A stretch of 64,000 bases of DNA from Pseudogymnoascus verrucosus. Taxonomy: Eukaryota. The notes beneath the pieces were generated by a model. The model ran no database searches. It was not told the DNA's origin and worked only from the letters and a program-made list of their open reading frames with translations. The translations under genes were made by a program, and so were the position numbers. This document shows, one piece after another, positions 580 through 22,642 of the stretch. The stretch is taken from assembly GCA_001662655.1 (NCBI GenBank), contig KV460212.1. One strand, 5' to 3'. Every line of letters begins with the position of its first letter. Within the stretch, counting starts at the first letter, position 1.

Positions 580-2748
580 CTATCCGTTGCCATTACACGA
601 GGAGTCACAAGGGCCTCCGGCAGCACACTGAACCTTATTGTTGTCAAAGCATCGACGACGAGTCCCAATCGCTGTGTGGAAATAAGCATGCCACTTTCCA
701 ATTTGTCAGTCTATATTTATATTCACAATTAGGTCTGTGCTTACCTCATATCCATTCTCATCCGGTTGGTCGAAGTAGTCAAAGTTCTAGGCGGTTAGAC
801 TACCTGTAGGAAGTCAGCACCAATAAGTGTCGAGTAAATTACTCGGAAAAATTTCTTACCAGAGCCACAACACGGATTTACTTGTTTCATTAACGACTGC
901 TGACCCCAATCATACGTTGCCCACCCGGCGCCATAGATGTCATAATTTTGAAATGCAATTTTGTACCATCCCTTGCAACTCTGTGATGGCGCCGTTGGCG
1001 GTGGCCATGGGCGATTCGTCCTATGAACTGAGACCGCATAAAAATACTCGCCCTCGGTTCTGTTGCCACCACCCTTCCAATTCATTGGATTGTTCCCCGA
1101 TCTGGGTACGTCACAGCCATTAATAATCGAGCTAATAGCTGTTTGGCAAGAGTCTTCGCTAAATGTAGAGACCTTGTCAGACAGCGATATGGCCATTATG
1201 AATTCGTCTAAGGTGCCAGAGTAATAAGTTTTAGCGACATGCCAACCAGCCACGTTTGCAGGCTTGTTTTTGGCTACATAACTGCAGAAATCATCGATGT
1301 TGTTGTTTAGTGCTCCAGCACTTGCGTAGGCACGGCTGCCGTGGTCTGAGAAACAGAACATATTATCGACTACAAGACATACGGGACTTTCTCCGAGTAT
1401 GGCAGCACGAGCATCTCCAATGGCATCAAGGGCGTATGCAGCGATGACTTCGTGGCCGAGGCCGTTTGGGTGGAAGATCTTCCCGATACTGTCAGGTAGA
1501 GGGATGGAAGATGCTGGACAACCCGGGTCGACAGGACCACGCTTGCTCATTTCTAGTCCATACGGCTCTGCGCCGTATGTCTCATTATCGTAGTGCATGT
1601 ATCCAAAACCACCACGGCTCTCCAACGGGGCCGTGACTCCGGTGAATAGCTTGAAGAACATGACGTTTGCGTTGCCCGCGTCGTCTGGATCCTACAGGAA
1701 TGTAAGAATCTTGTATTTGATACTTCTGAAAAATCTCTACTCACCGGACTCGCTCCTGCCTCGCCTGTGTTCAGAGTTACTTTAGCGGTCTAAATAGGAG
1801 GACTAGATGTCCTTTAATGAGAGACAACTTACAGAACTGCCCACCAGTGACCTGTGCCCATGGGTCCCAATCAGCAGTCACGATCTTCATCGTCGTTGTC
1901 GCGTTAGCCGCAACCTCATCTACAGCCGCTTGTATTACGGCATTGGTTTGCACTACAAGCGAGTTGAACTGTGTACGTCTCGATGTATTCAGTGGTAGCC
2001 CTGCTGTTTTTAATACCTGCCAATTTTCTTTTGTGCAAGCGTCGGTCTGGTCGTTGAAGTATTGAGCATACAAGACTTGGACTACAATCCCATTGTTGGC
2101 CATCTTGGAACTATAATTTATCAAAGTCAATTGAAATACGTGCATATAGAAAAACGTATATATACACACTCAAGGGCGATAAGAAGGTCCTTAATGTTCT
2201 GCTTGAAGTAGCCATCAGGTCCCAGTGCGGCGTGGGCAGTAGCCACAGCAGCGTCACATCGACTATCTAACGGTGCGACACCTGCAATACATTCGTTGAT
2301 GATATTTGACTGGATTTCTCGTCAGAATTTTGACATCTTTGAGCTTAGAGGTTTATCTCACGAGACAAAGATCATTTCCACCAGCAGTCATAATGACAAC
2401 ATCTTGATCATCATCTAAAGCATTGATCTGTTCAAATATACCAGATGAGATAGCTCCCGAGCATGCAACATACGTGAAATTCTTAACAGTTGGTCCGAAG
2501 AAATGATTCATGATCACAGGATAAGTATAAGAATACCGTGAGCAGTCGTCGGAGTTGTCGCTAAGGCTGTACAGATTTCCAGATCCAATGCCTGCTGTGA
2601 AGCTGTCTCCCACTGCGGCGAACTTCTTGATCCATGAGTAATCAGTAGGGTCTGTTACTGCTCTGGCCATGTCAAAGGAGCTGGCGGCAGCCGATACAGC
2701 AGAAACCATGGCAACGCTCAACGCCATCTCTAGTAAGGGCAGCATCAT
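580..2748 (-). pseudogene. Secreted SGNH/GDSL-type hydrolase with Cys-rich C-terminal domains; in-frame TAG near the 3' end (truncated allele or pseudogene)
   Basis: Signal peptide MMLPLLEMALSVAMVSAVSA; block I FAAVGDSFTAGIG, ACSGA, block III TAGGND, IFHPNGLGH; multi-exon; spliced 3' end reads CCGSGSLTA*NFDYFDQPDENGYEWHAYFHTAIG...CNGNG* with TAG at 787-789. Confidence 0.8.
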
Positions 2749-3606
2749 GATGAGCAGCAAGATGTCGCTGGTAACAATTTTCATCAGCGCAAACAAGAAC
2801 AAGGGAATGGGTAGTGAAAAGAACTTCAGATTCTCTTTGGCTCCTCACGAGATGCGAGTCGGTGTCTAATTGGAACCCTAGATCGGATGGTTGTCTCCAT
2901 CTAGACGACTTCTTCCGGGATGTAGCTGCGAAAGAATTGTTGGGTAAATGAGAAATGTTGGAAGGATCACTGTCTTAGATCGACACATGCAACTTCGATG
3001 GATTGGGGGGTCATCGGAAATGACGCCTTGCTACCCGTACGGAGGTAAAGCCTGGATCGGGGCTTTACTTCCGTACATGCCATAGTCTTTCCTGCACCCT
3101 CCTACTCCCGCCAAGCTGCGTTATAGTTGATCTACAGTAAATTCGAGTCCTGTATTTTTAGGGACCAAGAGTCAAGGGTGAGTGCACTTCTGCCAGAACC
3201 CATCCGAGGTCCACATGGATAATCGGTCCGTCAAAAATTGAGAAAATTGTAATCGAGCAAGTAAACTGGTGCACCTTGCCGGGGCAAGGTTCAGGGGGGG
3301 TGTTGCGAAAATCGTGAGCAAGGGCAAGGGTGCGGGCTAAATCGAATGTAGTTCGCGGATTGACAAACCCCAACCGTTGTATGACAAGGGCTGTTGGCCA
3401 TGGCGGTTTCATGTAACTGCATATTGTAAAGTGACTGATGGTGTCTCATATCCTCACCACTCGTGCTTTGTCAAGCTACATATTTCTTCGACGCAACCTC
3501 ATCATCGCTCGGCAGTGCCAAATTTAAGACATTGAAAATCATATGTCTGTCGTGTTTCTCTCTCTTAATTCTCTCTGATAGAACGCCTATGAAACATTGT
3601 GGTAAT

Positions 3607-4758
3607 ATGTTGCTGGTCAAAGCCATCCACGGTTGCCTGTACACTGGACTACTCTTCTCAACTATAACGCTGGCCTGTCCTGACTATCAAGACCTTCCAT
3701 TTTTCAAAGCCGCCAATGGAAGTAGACTTGATAAAGCTGAGTTATTGAAGAGATACTACACTGTCGAACCAAGCGAAGAAGCAACCCAAGCTCCCTCTAC
3801 ATGGCCCGGCAGCACTCTTCCATACTGCTTCGAAAACGATAATACGAAGACTCTATTGAAAGACTTGGTCGAAGATGGTTGGAAGCGCTGGCAGACATCG
3901 TTAGTGGTTGATAGGCAGTCTGTCTAAATTCTAGAGGCTAATGTTCACAGAGGCGTCGACTATAACATCCACATGGGGGAGTATAATAATTGTCCTGCCC
4001 CAGTTAATGGGAATGTTACAAAGGGCATCGGCTATCTTCTCATCCAGGCGAACACTGATGGGAGGTTGCTGACCACGATTGGAACTCAGTTTTATAGCGA
4101 AGGAAACGGTGCATTTATGCTCTTTGATCCCAATCCAGATCTCGCCATGGGGGATGCCGTCGCCAACATGGCGCACGAGATAGGGTGAGCTATTACGTTC
4201 GTTATGAACAAACTTGACTGACAGAGAAATAGACACGCATGGGGGTTTTATCACGAGCAGCAACGCCCTTACTTCTGGAACAAGGTCCAATACGCCCAAG
4301 CCACGGGACCCACGAATCAAATCAATTTCGTTTGCACAAATCTAGCCGATTATGTTGACAAAGCCGGGACACCAAATGGAGACTCGAACGATGTTTGCCA
4401 CAGCGAAGCAACGGCTAAAAGTAGAGGGTTTTCTGCACTCGAATATTTGCCTATGAAAATGTCATTTACAGCTGAGCTTGAACTTGCAGACTTTGACTGG
4501 AAATCCATTATGCTTTATGGATCTACGATTGGTGGTAAGGTGGTGAACGGTGTTCGCGCCAATGTATACACCAGAGGTCATGATGGAGCGGTTAACCCTC
4601 ATAACACGTCGCCGAGTCAGCTGGACGTAGACAGGTTCAATGCAATGTATACGAAAAAGGCGAAATACAAGAACCCATGTTTAATCAATCATGGTTGTAA
4701 CCCAAAGTACGCCTCCTACATGAACTTGAAGGTCAAGTGTAAGAAAAAGCTCAGTTAG
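3607..4758 (+). CDS. Secreted astacin-like (metzincin) zinc metalloprotease, 3 exons
   Basis: Signal peptide, KR processing site (LLKR-YYT); spliced zinc motif HEIGHAWGFYHEQQRP (HExxHxxGxxHE); Met-turn KSIMLYG; introns at ~3900-3949 and ~4185-4232 join the ORF fragments in frame. Confidence 0.85.
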
Positions 4759-4963
4759 ACAGGGTACCTTATGTAGTAAGGCACGAATTCCAAGACCGTG
4801 CAAAACGTTTTCTGCATCTACAGTAAGCTTACGAGTACTGCCGATTATTACGTACTTACCACCTGCCTACTTCCTCATTGGCCTGCCAGAATCTATAGAA
4901 AAGTTGTGCCCTAGCAAATGAAGGCCGTAGGATATTTAGGTCTTCCGTAATCTAACATATATG

Positions 4964-5170
4964 GTGGATCTAACAGGGTATCACCCAACTTATTGTCTAC
5001 GGAGTTAAAGCCTATTTACCTCCGTAGAGTAGTATTTGTTGCAGGTGAGAAGCTCAGCCGGGTTGGATGTTGGATATACGGGGGCCAAAAACAACAACAC
5101 CGCAACCTTACATGTAAAGTGGATCTAACAGGGGGTCAAAACAGCGTCCTACATAAAGTGGGGCGAGGGT
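4964..5170 (+). promoter_or_regulatory. Upstream module of chitinase gene with two GTGGATCTAACAGGG elements; homologous to 7893-8115
   Basis: GTGGATCTAACAGGGTATCA at 4964, GTGGATCTAACAGGGGG at 5119; flanking blocks CCGGG-TGGAT, CAAAAACAACA, TACATGTA and AGTGGGGCGAGG are shared with the LysM upstream region. Confidence 0.65.
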
Positions 5171-5384
5171 TCATCTATCTCGTATTTACGTTGGGGTCTA
5201 CTGGATATTTAGAAAGTGATGTACTGTAAAGCTTGTAACTTTTTCTTCTGTTGACTGGGGCAAGGGCGAGGAGTTCACTTGTCTGTCGATGGTAGTCAAG
5301 CACTTCATCCTTTTCTGACAACCTTCTCTCTGCTTCTCGCTTTATTCTGTAAATATTTACTTCCAGTAGAGAAAAATTGCCGCC

Positions 5385-7404
5385 ATGAAGCTATTCTCAC
5401 TTCTCCTGGTCGGGCTGGTCGGGCTCGCTTCTATTATTTCTGCAGATTATACATGTACAAAGACGAAAGATTGTGCCAGTGGATGTTGCAGGCTAGGATC
5501 TGATGGGTTTGCTCTGCCTTAATATAGAGTTCAAGTCAATTGCTAAATTCTTTCTAGAACGGGAAGCTGTGGTCTTGGTGCGATTCTAACGCTTCTTGAG
5601 CCGTAATCATCTGTACTAATCGAAATCAAGGACCTACATTTTGCGGAGCAGGCAACTGTACATCGACGTGTGATGCAGTTTCTGAATGTGACCCTGGATG
5701 GGGTTCCAAATGGTCTGCAGCAGAAGCTTGTCCTCTTAACGTCTGCTGCAGCCAGTACGGCTTCTGTGGTGAGTATAACAAGGTTTAAATTCGAGGACTT
5801 GATGGTGATTTGTTATAGGTACCACTTCTGATTTCTGCGGATCATCTACCGTGACTTCTCCTTCCTGCGGCGGTGCCAGCTCCGATGCTCGAACGATTGG
5901 ATACTACGAAGGCTGGAATCTGGAGCGACGCTGTGATAGTACGTATATCAGCCCATAGAGCGTGTGCAGCACTGATGATATTTAGCCATGACTCCAGAAA
6001 AGATACCCTTGGGGTATTACACACATATCAATTTTGCATTTGCATTAATCGATCCAGTCACGTTCAATATCGCTCCTATGGGGTCTGATGTTGCCGCACT
6101 TTATCAAAGAGTCACAGCCCTTAAAATTCTGCAGCCTGGGCTTCAGGTCTGGATCTCGGTTGGAGGATGGGCAATGAATGATCCCGGGCCAACAGCAACT
6201 ACATTCTCAGATATTGCGGCATCGTCTACGGCACAGTCTAATTTTTTCAATTCTTTAATCAGCTTCATGGAGAAAAATGGGTTTGATGGCGTTGATCTTG
6301 ATTGGTAAGTCTTGAGGAACCTGTTCTAATTTAAACTTGGACACAAGTACTAACCGGGTTTTTAGGGAGTATCCGGTTGCACCAGACAGAGGGGGGATTG
6401 CAGCTGACCATGAAAACTATCCTGTATTCCTTCAGAACCTCCGAAATGCATTAGACCAGAGTGGGATGCCAACTCGTCCCGGAATATCAATTACGATTGT
6501 GAGTGAAAGGGGGTAGTCTTATGGTAACCCCGTTTTAAACTTATCTAGCCATCTTCGTACTGGTATATGCGCGGCTTCGACATCGTAAAGATCGATCCTG
6601 TAATTGACTTTTTCAATATCATGACTTACGACATTCACGGAACTTGGGACTCCACGGATCCGTCAATTGGAGCTATTGCGCAAGCACACACGAATCTAAC
6701 GGAGATTGAGCAGAGCCTGGAGCTCCTTTGGAGGAATAACATCGATCCCGCGAGAGGTAATCCTTTCGGCACATTCCGAACATTTATGTGAATGCTGATA
6801 ACTGTCTCAGTAAATCTTGGTCTTGGATTTTATGGTCGCAGTAAGTTTATAATTCTCATCCGCCGATTACCACACTCACTAAATTAACAGGCTTTACAAT
6901 GAGCAGCTCGTCCTGTCTTGCATCAGGTTGTCAATTTTCTGGTGGTGGCAAACCCGGGCCATGCACAAACACGTCTGGAATTCTTTCAGCTACTGAGATC
7001 AGAGAAGTAGTCGCTGGTGGCGCATCCGTCACGTTTGATCCCGTTGCAGCTGTCAAGATCATCACGTGGGACAACAACCAATGGGTCTCTTATGATGATG
7101 TCGAAACCATGAAGTTGAAGCAAGTCTCTTCAAATATGACCTTTTGATCTGGCAAAGCTAACTATGTGTTGCAGAGTCCAATACGCCAATAGCCGCTGCC
7201 TTGGAGGGTGAGAATTGGATTCCCCGACATGACTTGTGCCTCCTGCTAATGATGCTTATTAGGACTATGGTATGGGCTGTAGATTTGGATGATGGAACCA
7301 CGATAAATGCACTTGGTTCGGACCTCAGTCGTCCAAAAACTCCAACTCTTGATCCGAGTCTTTTGGACCCCAACTTTAACAATACGGATTTGGGAAGTGA
7401 CTAA
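5385..7404 (+). CDS. GH18 chitinase, subgroup C-like (killer-toxin alpha-like), with N-terminal hevein/CBM18 modules; many introns
   Basis: Signal MKLFSLLLVGLVGLASIISA; Cys-rich GCC...GSCGLGPTFCG and CPLNVCCSQYGFCGTTSDFCG; THINFAFA, ISVGGW, spliced FDGVDLDWEYP (DxDxE intact), NIMTYDIHGTWD, WVSYDD, GGTMVWAVDLDD; one intron (7120-7174) is best modelled as GC-AG. Confidence 0.93.
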
Positions 7405-7892
7405 AGCTTTGCATTATTTATTATAAACAACCTATTTTCCTATTTTCACCTGTAAAATGACAGTATGCCATAAAGCGTAATGAATGCTGCCACCATAGGC
7501 ATTGAGATTCGCTCGTGTCCCAAGCGACCTATTATTGCCTGCACTTTATCCAACAGCCTCTGATCTCAGACAAGATTGGACAACGAAGAGCATGTACTTC
7601 TCAGTATCGGGCCTTCTTTAAATCTGTTCCGGCCCATTTACCAACAACGCCAGTTTACCGTCGGGCCAGCCAATACAACAAATGTAGAATTTTACACCGG
7701 TCAGTCGAATAACTAGCGTTGTTGGTGAGTTGGCCGGAACAAATATCTCTCACCTTCTCACCCCCGCACTCATACATCGTAATCAAGCCAATAAGACGCA
7801 GAAGGGTGAACGGGCAAGAATCCCATCTGGGTTACTGCAATAATTTCAACGGCAATTCCAACAGTGTCTCCACAGCCCTATCTGCATACGTA

Positions 7893-8115
7893 GTGGATCT
7901 AAGAGGGTATCAAGCTCATCGTCTAGGGTATGGAGCAGGCTAGAAGTCTAACCGGGCTGGATATGCAAGGGACAAAAACAACAGCCCCACAACCGTACAT
8001 GTATAGTGGATCTGACAGGGTATCAAGCTCATATTCGTAGTCTGGGCCTTGCTGCGGGTAAGATGCTTAGCCGGAGGCGTATATGCAGGGGTTAAAAACA
8101 GGCAGTGGGGCGAGG
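7893..8115 (+). promoter_or_regulatory. Upstream module of LysM gene: two tandem ~113-bp units starting GTGGATCT(AAG/GAC)AGGGTATCAAGCTCAT
   Basis: Units start at 7893 and 8006, each ending ...ATATGCA(A/G)GGG...AAAAACA; collinear similarity to 4964-5170. Confidence 0.65.
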
Positions 8116-8455
8116 ATGTATTGCACGTTTGTAACCTCCACGACAGTTCTCGGTTAGTCTGCAAAGTTCAGTTGGGGATTATAATGGGAACGTGGTGTAG
8201 TCCTAAGATATTGGGGGTTGAAGGCATTCGCTTCCAGGGGATTGCTTGTGCACCACTGCTGCTCGTACTTGAGTATTGCGTAGGCTCTTCCCCTTGTCTT
8301 GATTCCGGGCTCCTAGCTCTGCTGCTGGTCGTTCGCCCAGATCTCGTCGAGGTCTTGTGGGGAGATTCCACTCATCCTCTAATTCTGTCAGGTCGTTGCT
8401 GGAACTGCTCGTCGTAAATATCATTTTCAATCCTGATTCGTCATAGAACGTTGCA

Positions 8456-11400
8456 ATGGCTGTACTGCGTCTGCTGTTGCTTTCGACTATTCTAGCGGCT
8501 TGGAATGTGCAAGGAGGCATCATCGACCTGAAAGCTGCACAGGTCGTCCGAAGAGCAACGACAGCTCATACATCATACCGCACAACTGCAGGCTTGCCAA
8601 CGCAGACAGGAATTGCCGCAAACTGCAACAAGTTCTACGATATAGTTACGGGCGATAATTGCGAAACTGTAGAAGCTGCGTTTCAAATAACGAAAGGACA
8701 GTTTCTGGCATGGAATGTAGGTTCTGAATGGGGGATCTTATGTTTCTAGTAACTGAACTGACAGCCCTACAGCCTGCCGTTTCCGATGACTGCGTCACCA
8801 ATTTTTGGGTTGGAGATTCATACTGCGTTGGCACGGCTGCTGGTGGCGTTAGCAGTACTAAGAGCAGTACTAAGAGCGTTGCTCCTCACACGACTGTTCA
8901 CTCGACAGCAGATCTACCTACACAGTCCGGATCCATCTGCAATTGCAATAAATGGTATGATGTGGTAGCTGGCGATACCTGCGCGACAATTGAGAGCACA
9001 TTTGGGATCACACTTGCTCAGTTTCTCAAATGGAATGTAAGCTGGCACTGTAAATCCACCCTCAACCCTGTGCTGACTTGCAAAGCCAGCTGTATCGTCC
9101 GACTGTGCGACCAACTTCTGGACTGGGGATAGCTACTGCGTAGGGACAACAATAGCAGCTTGCCCTACAAGTACCTCAAAGACGACTACAAGCCATACTT
9201 CTCCTACCATCTCTTCAACTTACTCTATACTTTCGCAAATAACGAGCTCATACGTGCCGGCTACAATTGCAACAGCCACGTCCTGGCCGCCGACTCATAC
9301 CCAGGCTGGGCAAGTAGCATACTGTGAGAATCTGAGTTTCTTCGGGTAGGCAAAGCTAACCGACTGTCACAGGCAATAACTGGGATCTGGTATCTGCAAG
9401 TGATACGTGTGATAGTATACAGGGTAGCTATTCAACCTTCATGTCGATGGATGACTTGTACAAATCCCCCGAGCTTTTTAACATATTTAAACAAAGAGCT
9501 GACATGAGTATCAAGCATATCATGGAATCCAGCCATTGGTGTTAATTGCACCGGTCTTTATGTTAACTACTATGTTTGCGTTGGTGAGATTCTGCTAATT
9601 TAAATCTAGGCAGGAAACATAGCTGAATCTTTTCAGGAATTCAATATCAGACAAGTGCTATAGATAACTCTACTGCAACCTCATACTGGTACCCATCATA
9701 CACTCCAACTACTGCTCCAACACTTAATACATCGTTTGTTGCATCACCGACGCAGACCGGCATCCCACCTAGCTGCCTTGCTTTCTATCAGGCCAGCGCA
9801 AATGATACATGTGAGACGATTGTAGAGAAAGAGGGCTATGTGACATTAGATGAACTCAATGAATACAATGTGAGTCACAACACTTTATGACACCTGTGCC
9901 CAACTAACAAGTTAGCCCGCACTTGGATCTGATTGTTCCGGGCTAATTCCAGGGGATTATTACTGTGTCATGAACGGTACACTTCCGTTGCCATCTGTGG
10001 CAACAGTGGCACCGACCGCGACGCAGACTGGCATTGTATCCACATGTGTCTCATGGTACCGAGCAGATAGCGGAGACAATTGCCAGCTAGTTGTTGAAAT
10101 ATTTGGCACATTTAGTGCAGCAGATTTCCTGACGTGGAATCCAGCTGTTCTCTCAGACTGCTCAGGTTTTACAGTTGGTGATTATTACTGTGTTGCGATT
10201 CCGTCAACGCCAACAACAAGGACCACCAGTTATAGCTCTACGCCACTGCCGTCAAATGGAGTTGGCCCCCAGCCAGAACAGCCTGGAATTCCAGCCGCCT
10301 GCGCGGATTACTGGTTCGTTGGCACGTATGTGTCACGATTTCGTTTTTAACTTTGTGCACTATAACATTCACTGAACTTGTGTACAGACTAGACACCTGC
10401 GACTCCATTGCGACAAAAAATAATATCACAGTCGCTCAGCTGGAAAGCTACAATGTAAGTGGACTTCGAGATTCAAATAATTTTGGCAGGAATACTACTA
10501 ACGCGCTCATAGCCAGCACTTGGCAGTGACTGCTCGGGCCTGACACAAGACTACTATATCTGTGTTGGAAAGCCAGACAACTCCACAACTAGTACTACAG
10601 CTTCAGGTACAACTACTGGCAGTATTCCAAACACTCAGACTTCAGCTTTCAGTAGCTCAACAACAACTCCAACTTCATCTCCTTGTCAAACCGTTTCAGG
10701 GATAGTCTCACCAACACCTTCAAACGCCCTTTGTGGAGTTAAGGGTTCCTCAATTGCCGCCTCAGGTGCTGGAACTCTTATTGGATATGTTACCGGCAGC
10801 AGCTATGTTACAAGTCTTGCTGCTTGTAGCTCACAGTGTCTAGCAACTTCGTGCTGTACAAACATCTATTTCATTCAAGGGAGAAACTGCAACTTGCACT
10901 ATGGACCCAACGCTTTTAATAACAACGTTGGAAGTACACTGTTTGATTTTTATGATGCGACTTGTTTCACCTGTGGAGCGATAGGCTGTACTACAGCACC
11001 AAGTACAACTACTGGTGCTTCTCTAACAAATACAGGAGCGCTAGGGATTGTCACACCGTCTCCTGTCCAGGTAAGGACTTAACAACTCCAAAAAGATTAT
11101 GAGACGAGGATGGCTGACTATTATGCAGCCGAGCATGGTGAGTGGTTGCGAGAGATTCTACTACGTCGAAAGTGGCGACGGATGCTACAATCTAGCAGCT
11201 GAGGCGGGCATACCTCTTAGTAAGTTCAAATATGTTTCCATCTCAGTGCATACTAACTGGCATGCGTTCTATAGATAGCTTCTACTCTTACAATGTAAGT
11301 AAACCATCTACAACATGCTCCTCTCTGTACTAACAATTTGAAGCCTGCCGTAAAAACAGACTGTACCGGACTTCAAGCCCATGTTTATGTTTGTATTGGT

Positions 11401-11460
11401 CTTAATGGGCCAGCGACGACCATTACGACTGGCACGCCCGTACCAGTCCCGTCGTCGTAG
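8456..11460 (+). CDS. Secreted multi-LysM (CBM50) protein, seven fungal-type Cys-containing LysM domains plus a PAN/apple-like Cys domain
   Basis: Signal MAVLRLLLLSTILAAWNVQG; seven C..Y/W.V..GD.C..I.........F..(W/Y)NPA...C.......Y.C(V/I) units with T/S-rich linkers; most are split by an intron at N|P; stop TAG 11458-11460. Confidence 0.9.
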
Positions 11461-11680
11461 ATATATATACCTTCATGACCTTTGAGATTGATAGCATCCC
11501 AATGGTATGTGGTATACAATCGAGGAATTATAAGACTGTAGCGAGATGGTTTACATGAGGACTTCCAATCGTCATTAATATAGACCCTCTATGTCTGCAA
11601 TAAACTTGTAATTCTAGGTGTATACAAAACAAACTATTTGTCCTTTCATAATGCAAAGCTAGTGCACATCTAGGTGACAA

Positions 11681-12718
11681 TCATACATTGGCCGAAGACC
11701 CAAAACACGCCCTTGCTGTTGTAATATCCGGAAACGCTATTAGCGTGAAATTTGATCCCTCATCAACGCTCAAATTCCTCAAATTCGACGAAGGGAGGTA
11801 ATCTGATCCCTCATTACCGCTCAAATGCGTCGCATACGTCTGGGGGACCAGTACCTCAAAAACATCCATTTTACCCAGCTGCTTTAAAGGTCCTAGCCAC
11901 ACTTCCTTCAAATCAGCTGGTGCTGGATTGGGGCATTCATGGGCTATGACCGCAATCTCGAGGTGCCGGAGATTGGGCATACGTGCAAGCATAGCCCACA
12001 TGTCGTGATAAAGCTGCCTGTCTTTGGCCGGGATGACCGAGCAGCCTAGATTGAGAAAGTACCATTTCATCTCGATGGCACTAATAAGTGCGAAGCGTTG
12101 TGGGAGCACTAGTGACGAAAAGTCACAAAGAAGCTGTCGAGTGTCGAAGTCGAAGGTCGTGGTGCTGTAGAGGATGTCGATTGCTTCTGAATACCTTGCG
12201 TTGAGTTAGCAGCCTCCCCGAGAATGTGGAACCAGAGCAGCTCAAATATCAGTTATTTACATTTGTCGACATGTCAGCAAAATCGCAAAATCGAGCTTCA
12301 GTTTGCCCATCATTCCGTTTGGGGGTCCTGGATCCCCACCAAGATTTGCCCATCTACATCCATCCCGCCAGATCCTCCAGGAGTGATCATACCCCTTGGT
12401 TTGGTCCCACGTGCAAATGCAGTGCCACCATCGCCACTCTAAATGCTCCTTCTTCTTGTCTGTACGGTACTCGCGCGGTCCAAATTCGAAGGCCACGTGG
12501 ACTTTGCGATGGCCGAGGACATCGTCGTAGATGCGAAGGCGAAGTTCGATCGGCAGCCTCGACAAGAGCCCCGATGCAAGTTGACTAGGGTCATATAGAG
12601 TCAAAGCTCGCTCACGAATTTTGGGAAGACGTGGCTGAAGGTCTTTGTCCTGATATTCTGGCCGCTTCGGACGAGAAATCTTACGATTCTGTGACTCAGT
12701 TAGAACAATTGCGCTCAT
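11681..12718 (-). CDS. Intracellular F-box-like/DUF7730-type fungal protein, 2 exons
   Basis: LLSRLPIELRLRIYDDVLG and spliced AILLTCRQMYSEAIDILYSTTTFDF motifs; intron ~12195-12261 joins ORFs 12257-12718 and 11681-12109. Confidence 0.75.
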
Positions 12719-13015
12719 TAGTTAGATGGGCACTGAGTAAAACCTTGCGACTGAAGAGCTTCTTAAAGTCCATTATCATGTGCCTTGTGAGCTCCTCAGT
12801 GTACAGGTCGATCGATTGTGTCGGTCTGTCTGCTATAAAACTGCGGTCCAGGAGGGTTATTAGGGTAACCCCTGATTAGGGGTTGGTGCACGGACGATTT
12901 CCGCGTATTCTGTCGGAATCCGACGCGTCCTACGACACACTCATTTGAAGCTTGGACTCTTTTCGCGTATTCTGTTAGAATACGAAGCAGCATAAAGGTC
13001 TTGAGGAGGGCTGGC

Positions 13016-16442: not shown

Positions 16443-18651
16443 TGTTACGGATGTGAGACTAGGCCCGTAGCAGGCCGCTACGCCACGTCTAGGAGCTACT
16501 ATCACATGTTTGAGGCTGTTTGAGAGCTTTAGCTCAGGCCCTCACTCTAGCCTACTTACACCACGTAGGCTCCGTAGATAGTTTAGTTAGTCAATTGATT
16601 GTATTACTGCATACTATGCTATATACTCTAGTTTTCGATGTCCCTATTTTCGCCTGCATTTTACCACCTATGGGATACACAGCCGTTTTCGCTATGAATC
16701 TCTAGCTACAGCTAATATCCTCTAACGTATTTCACATACGAGTGGCCTACACAAGCGAGTGGCCTACCAAAACACTAAAATTTGACTATTACTGCCTACT
16801 ACTACACCACCACCCTACATAATGACCCTTATTCAATCGTAATTAAATCCTCGTGCCTCTCGCACGTACAGGAGTTATGGCCTATAATACTACATAAGCC
16901 GCAGCGCTTGTGTTGGCCCTTAGAGCCTACCTACCAACTACTCTTACTTGCTACCTCTATACAGACTTAAGCTTTAACCTTAGCACTTTAAACAATATCC
17001 TCTCCCTCTTATATAGAGAGACTACCCCCTTGCATTATACACCTCTTACACTTCCTTTCCCTCCTATTTTTCTACTCATTTGCTGCTTATAGAGCCTTAA
17101 CTTCTACCTTAAGTAGAATAGTAGAATGTATTATAACTTACACCCCTTTAACAAAGTAGCTAATAGCATTATTAATTAAGGTAGGAGAGCTATTCTAATG
17201 TTATACAACATAGTTCTTAATATGCTCTATTTAAAAATTAAGCTCCTTTATAGTTTAAGAAGGTCTTTAAAGTCTAATTATTACTCTTAACTATTAGAGG
17301 AGTTAGAGTTCTTAAGTATAGATTAAGCTAAGAAAGAATATTATATAGCTTATATAAAACTACTCTTATAGCTTAGAATCTACTCTTAATGTTCTACTCT
17401 ATAAATGTAGCTTTAAATGCTTCCTTAAATATAAAGAGAAACCTAAGCTTTATAATATAGTTTAGCCTATTCTATATAAAGGTTTTAATCTAACATCTAT
17501 ATAAAAGCTTTAGTAGAGTAAAGCAGCTTATATTAAGTAGCTAAAGAATGTATAATAAGTATAATAGTATATAAAGGGTAATTATCTTCTATTTTATATA
17601 ATAGTACTAAAATTAAGCTAAGAGGTAGCTCTTATGTCTATTAAGAATAAGAAGATAATAGGTTCTAATTATATAAGTGCTTATATGTTAATTAAAGTGT
17701 TAAATCTACTTATACCTAATTAAATTTAAAGTCTACCTATTCTTACTTAATATAATTACTTAATTGTCTTAAGTCCTTATACTAAATAAAGAGGTAATTC
17801 TATACTTTAAAAATAATAAATAGTAGGAGTGCCTATCTATATAAATTAACACCTTAGATAATTAACACCTATTCCCTATTCTCTAGCTATATAGTCTTTA
17901 GATAGCTCTTTACTCTTAAGCTTATAACTACCTTTATAGTAGTAATAACTCCTATTATAAAACCTACTTTATTAAAGTTATAGATATTCTACTTTAAGAT
18001 GCTATATTTTATAACTATGTTTTATATAAGAGAGAACTACTATTTAATTATCTTTAGATCTTTACATTTTACTCTTTTATACTTATACTTTAACTAAACA
18101 TTACTTTAATTTCTATATAACACTTTATAAAGTTAGTAGTCTAGTTAATCCTAATAGGGCTCTTACCTTATTTAGAGAGTAGAAGGTTAGCTATTTCTAT
18201 ATACCTTATAGCTAGAGTAGAAATCTACATAAATCTAGGTTAAGGATATACTAAACGAGAGCTAACTCTTTATATAGAGTTAACTTCTATAAGTTAGGAA
18301 TAGAGTTACATTAAGAAGTCATTCCTTAAATTTGTTAACATAGTGTTGTTTAAGGGATATTATATAATGCTATAGATACTTAAACACTTTAGAACTAGCC
18401 TTGTTTAATTATACTAATTACTAATAGTATTCTACCCTCCTAATTAGAGGATTTAGCTTATGTTAGTTGTAGCATGTTGTCTGCTGTTAAGTTGACGCGT
18501 CTTAGTGTTTTAGTGGGCCACTCGCTTATGTGGGCCACTCGTATGTGAAATACGTTAACACATTCTAATAATCTGTCTGTCTAGTAACTGAAATGCATAC
18601 ACGGGGCAAGTCGGTCCGCCCTTGCCGTGGCTTGTGACTAGCGGCTTAACA
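16443..18651. mobile_element. Probable solo LTR (~375 bp) split by the Fot1 insertion
   Basis: Begins TGTTAC at 16443 and ends TTAACA at 18651 (TGTTA/TAACA inverted ends); non-coding; no matching TSD seen. Confidence 0.4.
16725..18555 (-). mobile_element. Fot1/pogo (Tc1-mariner superfamily) DNA transposon, heavily RIP-mutated
   Basis: TIRs ACGTATTTCACATACGAGTGGCC... / ...GGCCACTCGTATGTGAAATACGT with internal CGAGTGGCC duplication; TA TSD at 16723-24 and 18556-57; 1831 bp; TpA-saturated interior; relic transposase start (SSN*EGRILL) on the minus strand. Confidence 0.9.
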
Positions 18652-19343: not shown

Positions 19344-19752
19344 ATGAAGCTTATATATATTGTCACAGCTTTTGCTCTCTCAGCCGCAGCCGCTCCTGTT
19401 GAATCCTCAAACAACAATGAAAATATTGTAAGCTAATGCTTATGATACTAAGTTCCTACATCTAATAGTCATGGTACAGGAGGCGCGTCAGACCCTCACT
19501 TGCACCTCTTCCACGAGCAGCTGTGAGTCCTATATTTATCCTTATAAATGCTTCCCTTTTTGCTAACATGAAACGTTAGCTTGCTATTCACGCTGTCAGA
19601 GCCAGGGTATTCCGGGTTACGGTGCTTGCTCAGGATACGTATGATTACTCCTGCTATCGTCTGTGAATCAGGCATATACTAATTGAATTCTATAGTGTCA
19701 TTTGTTAGATGGCACCCATGGTTACTGCGTGTGCAGTTGCCCGCACCCATAA
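19344..19752 (+). CDS. Small secreted 8-Cys defensin-like peptide precursor (80 aa, 4 exons)
   Basis: Exons 19344-19427, 19480-19522, 19580-19638, 19696-19752, all GT-AG with CTAA(C/T) branch sites; MKLIYIVTAFALSAAAAPVESSNNNENIEAR-QTLTCTSSTSSSCYSRCQSQGIPGYGACSGYCHLLDGTHGYCVCSCPHP*. Confidence 0.85.
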
Positions 19753-20121
19753 TTGACGTATCACACGTCAGTTTGGGAGGATTCTCTCGCTTTCGCTTCT
19801 ATGTTTGTGGTGGGTTGTTGCAGGTCGTTGGTCTCCGTTTGTATAGAGTCCTACAAAAGAGTATGGAATAGAGGAATCCTATACATAACAGCTACTCTTG
19901 TCCTAGGATGAAGGATGGTAGAGTTAGCAGCGTGTGTTAGTTATTAAGAATTGGATCTCTATTTTCAACTTTACATGCTCTCGCCACTCTTAGGTAAGAT
20001 AATATTAAAATTACTATTATAATTTATATAAACACTTAGGAATCATGTAGAACATTTGCAAGTCGTCCTTCTAACTAGTAGATGGTGCAACTAAGTCGTA
20101 ATAGTTTTTATCATTTATGTA

Positions 20122-20263
20122 ACGTATTTCACGTACAAGTGGCCTACACGAGCGAGTAGCCCACTAAAACGCTAAAATGCATTAACTTTACAAATTTTAA
20201 CATACCACAACTAACACAAGCCTAGTCCTCTAATTAGGAGGGTAGAATACTATTAGTAATTAG
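20122..20263 (+). mobile_element. 5' end fragment (TIR plus transposase start) of the same Fot1 family as 16725-18555, opposite orientation
   Basis: TA|ACGTATTTCACGTACAAGTGGCC...TCCTCTAATTAGGAGGGTAGAATACTATTAGTAATTAG matches the reverse complement of ~18420-18555. Confidence 0.85.
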
Positions 20264-21025
20264 CTGGATCTGCCGTGTAGATGGTCTGGATTATGGGATT
20301 GTCTGCAGTGCCTATGCCCCTTCTATTAAGCAGAGCACCCAAGGACAGTAGTCCTGGCACCACAGACAGCAAGCGGTTACGCATAACTACCTTGCTAGAT
20401 GCGTGGTGAATTGTAAATAGGAGTGGCTCTTAGGACAAAACGATACAAAAGGCAGACGTATCTCGACAAAGGCATAGTACGATGCTGACCAGAATACATC
20501 TTATCTAGCAATTTATACGACTTGAAGAATGTAAATTTTTACATGTCTTCCCTTCAAATCAACGTCACACCCGATACTATGCCAACCCCCCTAACCACCT
20601 CATTTTAGGCTAAAAGCAATGGCTGTTGGGGGAGGGGATGAGTGCAATGACGGAGCAATTTAATAGTAGCGCAACAGTGCATGGTTTCGTGAACGAACTA
20701 ACGCCGGGTTTATAAACACTACATAGGCCGTAGTATGGGGTGTCTGTTATTACTCGGCTTGAAAGGTGGGTCGTGCGGGGTATGTTCAGTGATGTCCGTG
20801 CTGTCAATAACTACTTGACCAATTGCTTTAAAAATCAAACAGAGTGCTTTTATGATTATAAAAAGCTAAGATTATATTTTTATAACTTATTATTAAAGGG
20901 TTGTCAAGATACTAAGTTACGAAATTCACGATTTTTGGTGTAAAATGCAGTGTTCCGCTCGCCCGTGTGTTCCGCTCGCATGTGAACCACATTAGTTATT
21001 TGTAGTTTATAATAGAGAGATGATT

Positions 21026-21071
21026 GGGGTGGACCACTCGCTTGTGTGAACCACTCGCTTGTGTCGCACGT
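21026..21071 (+). mobile_element. Isolated right TIR of a Fot1-like element
   Basis: ACCACTCGCTTGTGT duplicated, ending ...GCACGT|TA. Confidence 0.65.
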
Positions 21072-21311
21072 TAGCAAGCAGAAGTAAAAGGGAAGAAACA
21101 AGAGTTCATTTTGTCTGTGCTTGATTTATGCAAATATGAACAAGTCTCCGGCCGGAATAGAAGAAATTTAAAACGCAGCCATCAGCAGCTCCATCCCTCC
21201 ACACTATGTACAATCTCGACCTTCGAAGCCGTCCGAGCCTCAATCCGATGATCACACTAAGTGAAAGAGAAGTCGGCCTTTCAGTCTTTTGACGACACTG
21301 TCAATCATCTC

Positions 21312-22642
<1,331 letters not shown>

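Follow-up and report, generated by a model that had tools for sequence, protein, structure and literature searches.

The stretch of DNA analyzed here (64,000 nucleotides, referred to as the window) is the start of contig KV460212.1 (C7) in the 30.2-Mb genome of the fungus Pseudogymnoascus verrucosus. Between repeats of the type left by repeat-induced point mutation (RIP), it carries an SGNH hydrolase gene (minus strand), an astacin-like metalloprotease gene (plus), a GH18 chitinase gene (plus), a gene for a protein with multiple LysM domains (plus), and a DUF7730 gene (minus), in that order (Table 1). An original prediction, made from the letters of this stretch, held that DNA upstream of two unrelated genes, those for the chitinase (copy A) and the LysM protein (copy B), is homologous and that the repeated block is a cassette defining a regulon of the cluster. 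This block is the subject of our report.

A duplicated block upstream of the chitinase and LysM genes

The homology was confirmed. A 69-nucleotide block upstream of the chitinase gene (5071-5139) is 83% identical to one upstream of the LysM gene (7958-8026), and blastn aligned 4969-5139 with 7857-8026 at an E value of about 1e-14. The core sequence lies at 4964, 5119, 7893, and 8006, always on the plus strand, and these places are as stated in the original prediction. They stand 421 and 266 bp before the chitinase ATG (5385) and 563 and 450 bp before the LysM ATG (8456). Global alignment of the two copies (4945-5170 and 7870-8115) gave a score of 107 (P = 0.001). A copied block of 430 bp, obtained by local alignment, was reduced to cores of ~230 bp, as the flanks of the copies did not align significantly (P = 0.17 and 0.42).

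Both copies are decayed tandem arrays, with units of ~113 to 155 bp. Copy A consists of U1 (155 bp) and a truncated U2, and copy B consists of V1 (113 bp) and V2, preceded by a partial unit, V0, that starts at ~7808. Pairwise identity among U1, U2, V1, and V2 is 70 to 79%; V0 is 72% identical to V1 and only 51 to 58% identical to the other units. Because each copy is an array of units, the four cores are unit starts and not independent sites. Tandem Repeats Finder did not detect the units. Identity between the copies is clustered at one junction, where windows of 40 columns contain 31, 34, and 34 identical columns and the best 60 columns contain 51. By permutation, this clustering had a P value of about 0.006 to 0.007 at 60 and 90 columns and of 0.08 at 30 columns. 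Low-depth contigs from run X6 span copy A with 5 differences (4936-5234) and copy B with 12 (7776-7973 and 7986-8277). Since these contigs carry both copies at ~98% identity, the duplication is not private to this assembly. Copy A had no coverage in runs X8, X10, and X12, a result without weight as evidence.

The block is confined to this locus. The 15-mer core has four exact matches in the genome, all at the known places (control, 0), and a 24-mer allowed up to three mismatches matched the same four places only (control, 1). A DNA search of the genome with either copy returned the query alone; this search skips very common words, and the pattern scans do not. A 13-mer core had five matches (control, 1) with a pattern built from three of them, and the matches at C13:512557 and C35:298564 look like chance. 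The alternative named with the original prediction, a family of miniature inverted-repeat transposable elements (MITEs) with many unlinked copies, is ruled out, because only the window matched genome-wide by both DNA search and pattern scans.

The sister cluster and the probable direction of copying

The window was compared with 18 other GH18 regions of the same genome and with 46 loci from one scan of metagenome contigs. A region of contig C13 (about 496400-507300; L059 and L060) is a sister cluster, in which the genes follow the same order at 67 to 72% nucleotide identity. Its protease gene is inverted relative to that of the window, together with ~350 bp of the gene's own upstream DNA. The chitinases of the two clusters share a short form and group as sisters (98/98) in a tree of 25 rows. 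The core of copy A aligned with the region upstream of the sister LysM gene at a global score of 58 (P = 0.002), that of copy B did so at 25 (P = 0.04), and copy A scored -9 (P = 0.62) against the region upstream of the sister chitinase gene. In local alignment, copy A scored 80.5 against the former region and 47.5 against the latter, and 80.5 tops all 1,028 control tiles from the same genome (maximum, 73). The 13-mer core is kept upstream of the sister LysM gene, and both it and TACGGGGGCCA survive in the sister cluster, against a background identity of ~62%. Homology to the sister chitinase gene resumes at 5285, just behind copy A. On the other side, 4816-4840 matches L059:8438-8461 weakly (10 of 300 shuffles reach the score), and this 25-nucleotide match suggests that the old chitinase upstream region survives to the left of copy A. 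A 67-nucleotide element common to two intergenic regions of the sister cluster was not significant (32 of 300 shuffles).

These data establish a real, single-locus, lineage-specific duplication, through which two unrelated genes of the cluster have upstream DNA in common. A diverged version stands only before the LysM gene in the sister cluster, and a single transfer of DNA from upstream of the LysM gene to the chitinase gene would be the simplest history. The pattern by which we recognize promoter capture, namely, homologous upstream DNA that is absent at the chitinase gene of the outgroup, was found with one outgroup locus and a modest match there. Because the score between copies A and B (107) exceeds that of either against the sister region (58 and 25), the copying would postdate the split of the clusters, or conversion has occurred since.

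We therefore favor promoter capture, at a probability of roughly one-half: LysM-upstream DNA would have been copied in front of the chitinase gene in this lineage and would act there as regulatory DNA. After the window and C13 clusters split, ~230 bp would have been placed, in the same orientation, upstream of the chitinase gene 2.9 kb away, with copy B as the probable donor position and copy A as the probable recipient. This could have happened by tandem duplication of the segment from the chitinase gene to the LysM promoter, after which the first chitinase copy was lost, or by a single ectopic copying step. Both genes now lie 270 to 560 bp behind the same elements and would most likely be under shared control, and a degenerate palindrome at the best-kept junction may be what selection retains. 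The intact reading of both genes also counts in favor of capture: the chitinase gene has 11 exons encoding 497 amino acids with a DLDWE motif and no internal stop, and the LysM gene encodes ~800 amino acids without stops in a splice model built from sequence alone. The reported co-regulation of such a gene pair in Trichoderma (PMC4392113) and the VIB-1 peaks at such pairs in Neurospora crassa (PMC7084071) point the same way. We rejected a bidirectional chitinase/LysM promoter that was cut at staggered positions and inverted, because inverted copies would be expected from this and the copies are direct.

Several points weigh against capture. The sister LysM-upstream region is matched modestly (3 of 300 shuffles do as well when the scoring is stricter), and it was missed by a profile of the window copies; profiles of the window units had no match below an E value of 0.25 in the 46 metagenome loci, the 18 GH18 regions, or the sister cluster. 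The region ends used for the core and flank scores were set after the alignments had been seen, and because the flanks do not align, the breakpoints are not pinned. Copy A is nearer to the sister sequence than copy B is, which requires an extra rearrangement of B. The direction depends on one outgroup locus, which would also fit a block that once stood at both sites and was lost later. Clustered identity could equally arise through later gene conversion, and copy A has tolerated an insertion and a mildly RIP-like composition. Finally, on the cross-species matrix described below, the palindrome-like sites of the block score 0.3 to 0.6 bits (region P = 0.95 to 0.99).

The alternative that survives best, although we consider it the less convincing account, is the same copying with no regulatory role; the block would then be a neutral outcome of rearrangements in a repeat-flanked region that is prone to them. 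Over a wider region, identity between the copies is only 64%, and the core is absent from the cluster promoters of other fungi. Several hairpins and the tandem units lie within 5 kb, beside an inverted protease gene. The hairpin at 4998-5026 has terminal inverted repeats and a TA duplication relative to the empty site in V1, a comparison that covers 4998-5026 only, and is probably a tiny Tc1/mariner-type relic. Its arms recur upstream of the SGNH gene and match exactly at these two places only, genome-wide. With up to one mismatch, a genome scan for a hairpin family or an autonomous partner found five matches, three of them inside the two hairpins (control, 6), and thus revealed neither. The larger hairpin at 7622-7744 falls where the alignment with the sister cluster is gapped and is covered by runs X6, X8, and X10. 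In runs X8 and X10, a single contig of 6 to 7 kb holds 7582-8300 without gaps, with 63 and 54 differences (91 to 92% identity), and carries unrelated sequence upstream of 7582. Between these two runs, X8 has five more C>T and four more G>A places, which looks RIP-like. The hairpins and the X8/X10 breakpoint mark the region as rearrangement prone and keep the neutral alternative alive.

RIP-type repeats also flank the cluster, at 1-540 (TpA/ApT, 2.45) and at 16723-18557. The latter is an AT-rich element with 56-nucleotide terminal inverted repeats and TA ends, which we take to be pogo/Fot1-like; similar ends lie near 20120-20175 and 20960-21070. The block itself had been called not RIP-like, which is mostly right: copies A and B differ by 56 transitions and 89 transversions. 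The composition of copy A departs from that description. Its TpA/ApT and substrate indices are 1.46 and 0.85, within the usual RIP thresholds, and those of copy B are 1.04 and 1.15, outside them. Elsewhere in the genome, a GH18 copy at C44 93793-94827 contains 19 stops (10 TAG and 9 TAA) and was apparently destroyed by RIP. Against neutrality stand the clustering of identity in one junction (P of about 0.007), the survival of the 13-mer core and TACGGGGGCCA above the background of the sister cluster, and the space taken by copy A, which fills 226 of the ~625 bp between the protease stop codon and the chitinase ATG.

Promoter elements of a recurring four-gene cluster

The genes for the SGNH-lectin protein, the astacin-like protease, the subgroup-C GH18 chitinase, and the LysM protein recur together, mostly as divergent pairs whose partners differ. 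SGNH/chitinase and protease/LysM pairs occur in L082, L090, L098, L099, L109, and L111; LysM/SGNH and protease/chitinase pairs occur in L086 and L087; and LysM/chitinase and protease/SGNH pairs occur in L091. As a cluster of four to five genes that includes DUF7730, the group is seen in L082, L086, L090, L091, L092, L098, and L109 and at 600-12721 of the window.

A palindrome, GTAC-NN-GTAC, marks these clusters. It was counted in 35 loci, 24 of them nonredundant and 22 after the window and the sister cluster were left out. Nine of the 22 nonredundant chitinase upstream regions contain it (null, 0.3; maximum, 3). A matrix made from these nine sites found sites of at least 13 bits in six of nine held-out promoters that do not face a chitinase gene; those missed were in L082, L090, and L107. 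An unseeded palindromic expectation-maximization search converged on the same motif. Within 17 loci, 12 exact sites fall in 28.9 kb of promoter DNA versus 7 in the remaining 163.7 kb, and the half-sites are spaced by 2 nucleotides in 12 cases, by 4 in one, and by 1 in none. Sites of at least 12 bits occur in 15 of 23 promoters, a count that includes training sites, and in none of 13 convergent intergenic regions. Because the loci share ancestry, closely so in some cases, these counts overstate independence. In many fungi, the palindrome is often present in both divergent promoters of such a cluster.

On this cross-species matrix, the window lacks a good site (region P = 0.53 to 0.99). The sister cluster contains a variant palindrome, GTAANNTTACAT, once in each of its three intergenic regions (3 of 56 genome matches, with the pattern drawn from them), and the form GTAA-SS-TTAC stands once in each of these regions. 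GTAANNTTACAT is also found in one other chitinase/LysM promoter, on C63. Neither GTAANNTTACAT (56 matches versus 42 for the control) nor GTACNNGTACAT (73 versus 65) is clearly enriched genome-wide. The near match to GTAANNTTACAT in copy A has a counterpart in copy B at 7989-8000 (9 of 12 positions), and a link of the window sites to the variant palindrome is suggestive only. A broader proposal that we regard as doubtful is that all four genes are controlled by one factor, probably VIB-1/XprG-like, through one GTAC-NN-GTAC site per divergent promoter while rearrangement swaps the partners. The head-to-head layout would have been lost here in the same way, and joint control of the chitinase and LysM genes would have been rebuilt by the copied LysM block with a drifted site.

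Much less of the evidence agrees with the regulon version of the original prediction, an old transcription factor cassette that defines the whole cluster. The copies do share their orientation and a similar distance to both ATGs, and related clusters do have a common promoter element; in addition, the half-site (G/T)TACAT occurs in 19 of 23 promoters of other clusters (null, 12.5; P of about 0.007; one of 14 patterns). The core, in contrast, is found neither in the cluster's own SGNH/protease divergent promoter nor before the sister chitinase gene, and all 23 promoters from related clusters of other fungi lack it as well. In those 23 promoters, GATC..ACAGG was found in none (null, 0.3) and GTGGATCT was found in one (null, 0.9). 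Self-comparison of other multigene loci revealed no comparable long shared upstream block. These absences make the block lineage-specific, and it covers two of the four genes. Thus, of what had been predicted, the duplicated block stands as a single-locus feature with clustered conservation and a 13-mer kept before the sister LysM gene, and the old regulon cassette is largely refuted for this core and very improbable as an explanation. Two further patterns, TGACAG (18 of 23; P = 0.013) and AGCCGG (15 of 23; P = 0.04), were not robust among the 14, and the CreA-like SYGGRG occurred in 23 of 23 promoters at a null of 22.5. Among the other loci, the nearest to a shared upstream block is a 75-nucleotide, 71% match in L092. 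In L092, from another fungus, a short similarity between the chitinase upstream DNA (8409-8525) and DNA beyond the astacin-like gene (18463-18599) is the sole sign of a second such stretch.

It is equally improbable that a transposon or minisatellite inserted at two neighboring places and left the two copies as relics, for although the units are in tandem and the TA-flanked hairpin in copy A, with its twin at 3038-3075, shows that small mobile-type insertions occur here, the block is single-locus by DNA search and pattern, no terminal inverted repeats or target duplications were seen at its ends (none of the inverted repeats listed bounds either copy, and the ends are not pinned), homologous sequence lies at the orthologous position of the sister cluster, and positions 2800-8500 had no Rfam match at E values up to 1.

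Table 1. Features of the window and palindromic sites in related loci
Feature	Position	Strand	Remarks
SGNH/GDSL-like hydrolase gene with alpha-galactosyl-binding fungal lectin domain	600..2748 (approximate ends)	-	Divergent from astacin-like gene
Inverted repeat with the arms of 4998..5026	3038..3075	.	Upstream of SGNH gene; P = 0.001
Astacin-like (PF01400) metalloprotease gene	3589..4758	+	
Perfect palindrome GTAAGCTTAC	4823..4832	+	Just outside copy A; same 10-mer upstream of sister chitinase gene (L059:8469-8478)
Copy A, before chitinase gene	4945..5170	+	U1 core 4964-4978; truncated U2 core 5119-5133; terminal AGTGGGGCGAGG 5157-5168
29-bp inverted repeat inside U1	4998..5026	.	TA on both sides; V1 has a single TA there
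Best-conserved junction block	5069..5153	+	78 to 85% identical to 7956-8037; holds TACATGTA palindrome and second core
11/12 match to GTAANNTTACAT	5102..5113	+	Inside best-conserved block; 0.3 to 0.6 bits with counterpart
GH18 chitinase gene, subgroup-C type	5385..7404	+	CBM18 and GH18 (PF00187, PF00704)
123-bp inverted repeat, 34-nucleotide arms (85%)	7622..7744	.	Just upstream of copy B; single copy
Copy B, before LysM gene	7870..8115	+	V1 core 7893-7907; V2 core 8006-8020; terminal AGTGGGGCGAGG 8104-8115
Multi-LysM gene	8456..11460	+	N terminus signal peptide-like
DUF7730 gene	11681..12721	-	Also adjoins several related clusters
GTAC-NN-GTAC sites, mostly GTACCGGTAC	L083:8992, L090:1333, L091:4189, L092:8750, L098:9024 and 12989		
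GTAC-NN-GTAC sites, further	L108:1616, L111:5564, L118:2117, L124:3834		

The chitinase combines CBM18 and GH18 domains with a DxDxE motif and an adjoining LysM gene, the features of subgroup C, to which it presumably belongs. Its intron at 7120-7174 is of the GC-AG type. The astacin-like protease has two named homologues, 59 to 60% identical and labelled Pseudogymnoascus. By eye, 21260-22020 (minus strand) looks like a GH11 xylanase gene, and 19345-19750 (plus strand) looks like a small gene for a cysteine-rich protein of the secreted type with multiple introns.

Comparison with known systems

If functional, the block would be a dated, local example of cluster genes regaining shared control after rearrangement, and the sister cluster without the copy offers a built-in comparison. 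The larger value lies in the recurring chitinase/LysM/protease/SGNH cluster and in the sharply delimited palindrome of its promoters, which can be tested directly as a candidate site for the regulator of subgroup-C chitinases. Titles and abstract openings of the open-access literature contained no description of the four-gene cluster or of the block (subscription papers were outside this scope), and the accessible parts of PMC11904784, PMC10735191, and PMC8042737 mention neither the motif nor the cluster.

Promoter capture as a kind of event is already known. Capture and tandem promoter repeats have been described for citT in Escherichia coli, for the 76-bp repeats of SSU1-R in yeast, and for TR34/TR46 of cyp51A in Aspergillus fumigatus. 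As in those systems, a gene here would have gained a copy of the upstream DNA of another locus, and tandem promoter copies would multiply binding sites. The event in the window differs in being old (units 70 to 79% identical) and in joining two unrelated genes of one cluster, and its effect on expression is a prediction. MITEs of the Tc1/mariner type resemble the two mini hairpins, whose arms are inverted and which are bordered by TA at either end; no such ends were seen at the block, whose limits are not pinned and which occupies one locus, and the hairpins have two copies only.

The pairing of a subgroup-C chitinase gene with a multi-LysM gene is shared with tac6/tal6 of Trichoderma atroviride, neighbors that are reported to be co-regulated (PMC4392113), and with NCU05317/NCU05319 and NCU07484/NCU07486 of Neurospora crassa. 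The genes in the window differ in lying one behind the other, with an upstream block that is duplicated, in a short chitinase (497 amino acids), and in the additional SGNH-lectin and astacin-like genes of the cluster. Most chitinase/LysM pairs of this genome and of the metagenome loci are head-to-head, and this one is not.

The palindrome itself can be compared with the sites of three factors. VIB-1 of N. crassa binds 1,742 promoters, and DNA affinity purification sequencing placed its peaks upstream of the chitinase genes NCU05317, NCU07484, and NCU07035 and of the LysM genes NCU05319 and NCU07486; NCU05319 belongs to the VIB-1 core regulon, whereas NCU05317 is listed among its direct targets (PMC7084071). 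The VIB-1 motif keeps T, A, and C (PMC7084071), and the cluster palindrome has TAC on both strands. Judged from the described motif, GTAC-NN-GTAC may be a VIB-1-type site, and this genome has four NDT80_PhoG genes. The block in the window, however, matches the palindrome only weakly, and equating the N. crassa locus with this four-gene cluster would be conjecture. A Res1-like Zn2Cys6 factor and GRHL are rival candidates. The Res1 motif of T. thermophilus, TATGTACAGTACATAC, also consists of two GTAC half-sites (PMC11708020), but these are spaced by 1 nucleotide, whereas the spacing in the cluster palindrome is strictly 2 (12 sites versus 0 at a spacing of 1). The fungal GRHL site, AACCGGTT, has the CCGG center in common with the palindrome (PMC3348937), but it is flanked by AA/TT, whereas the flanks here are TA/TA and the center varies.

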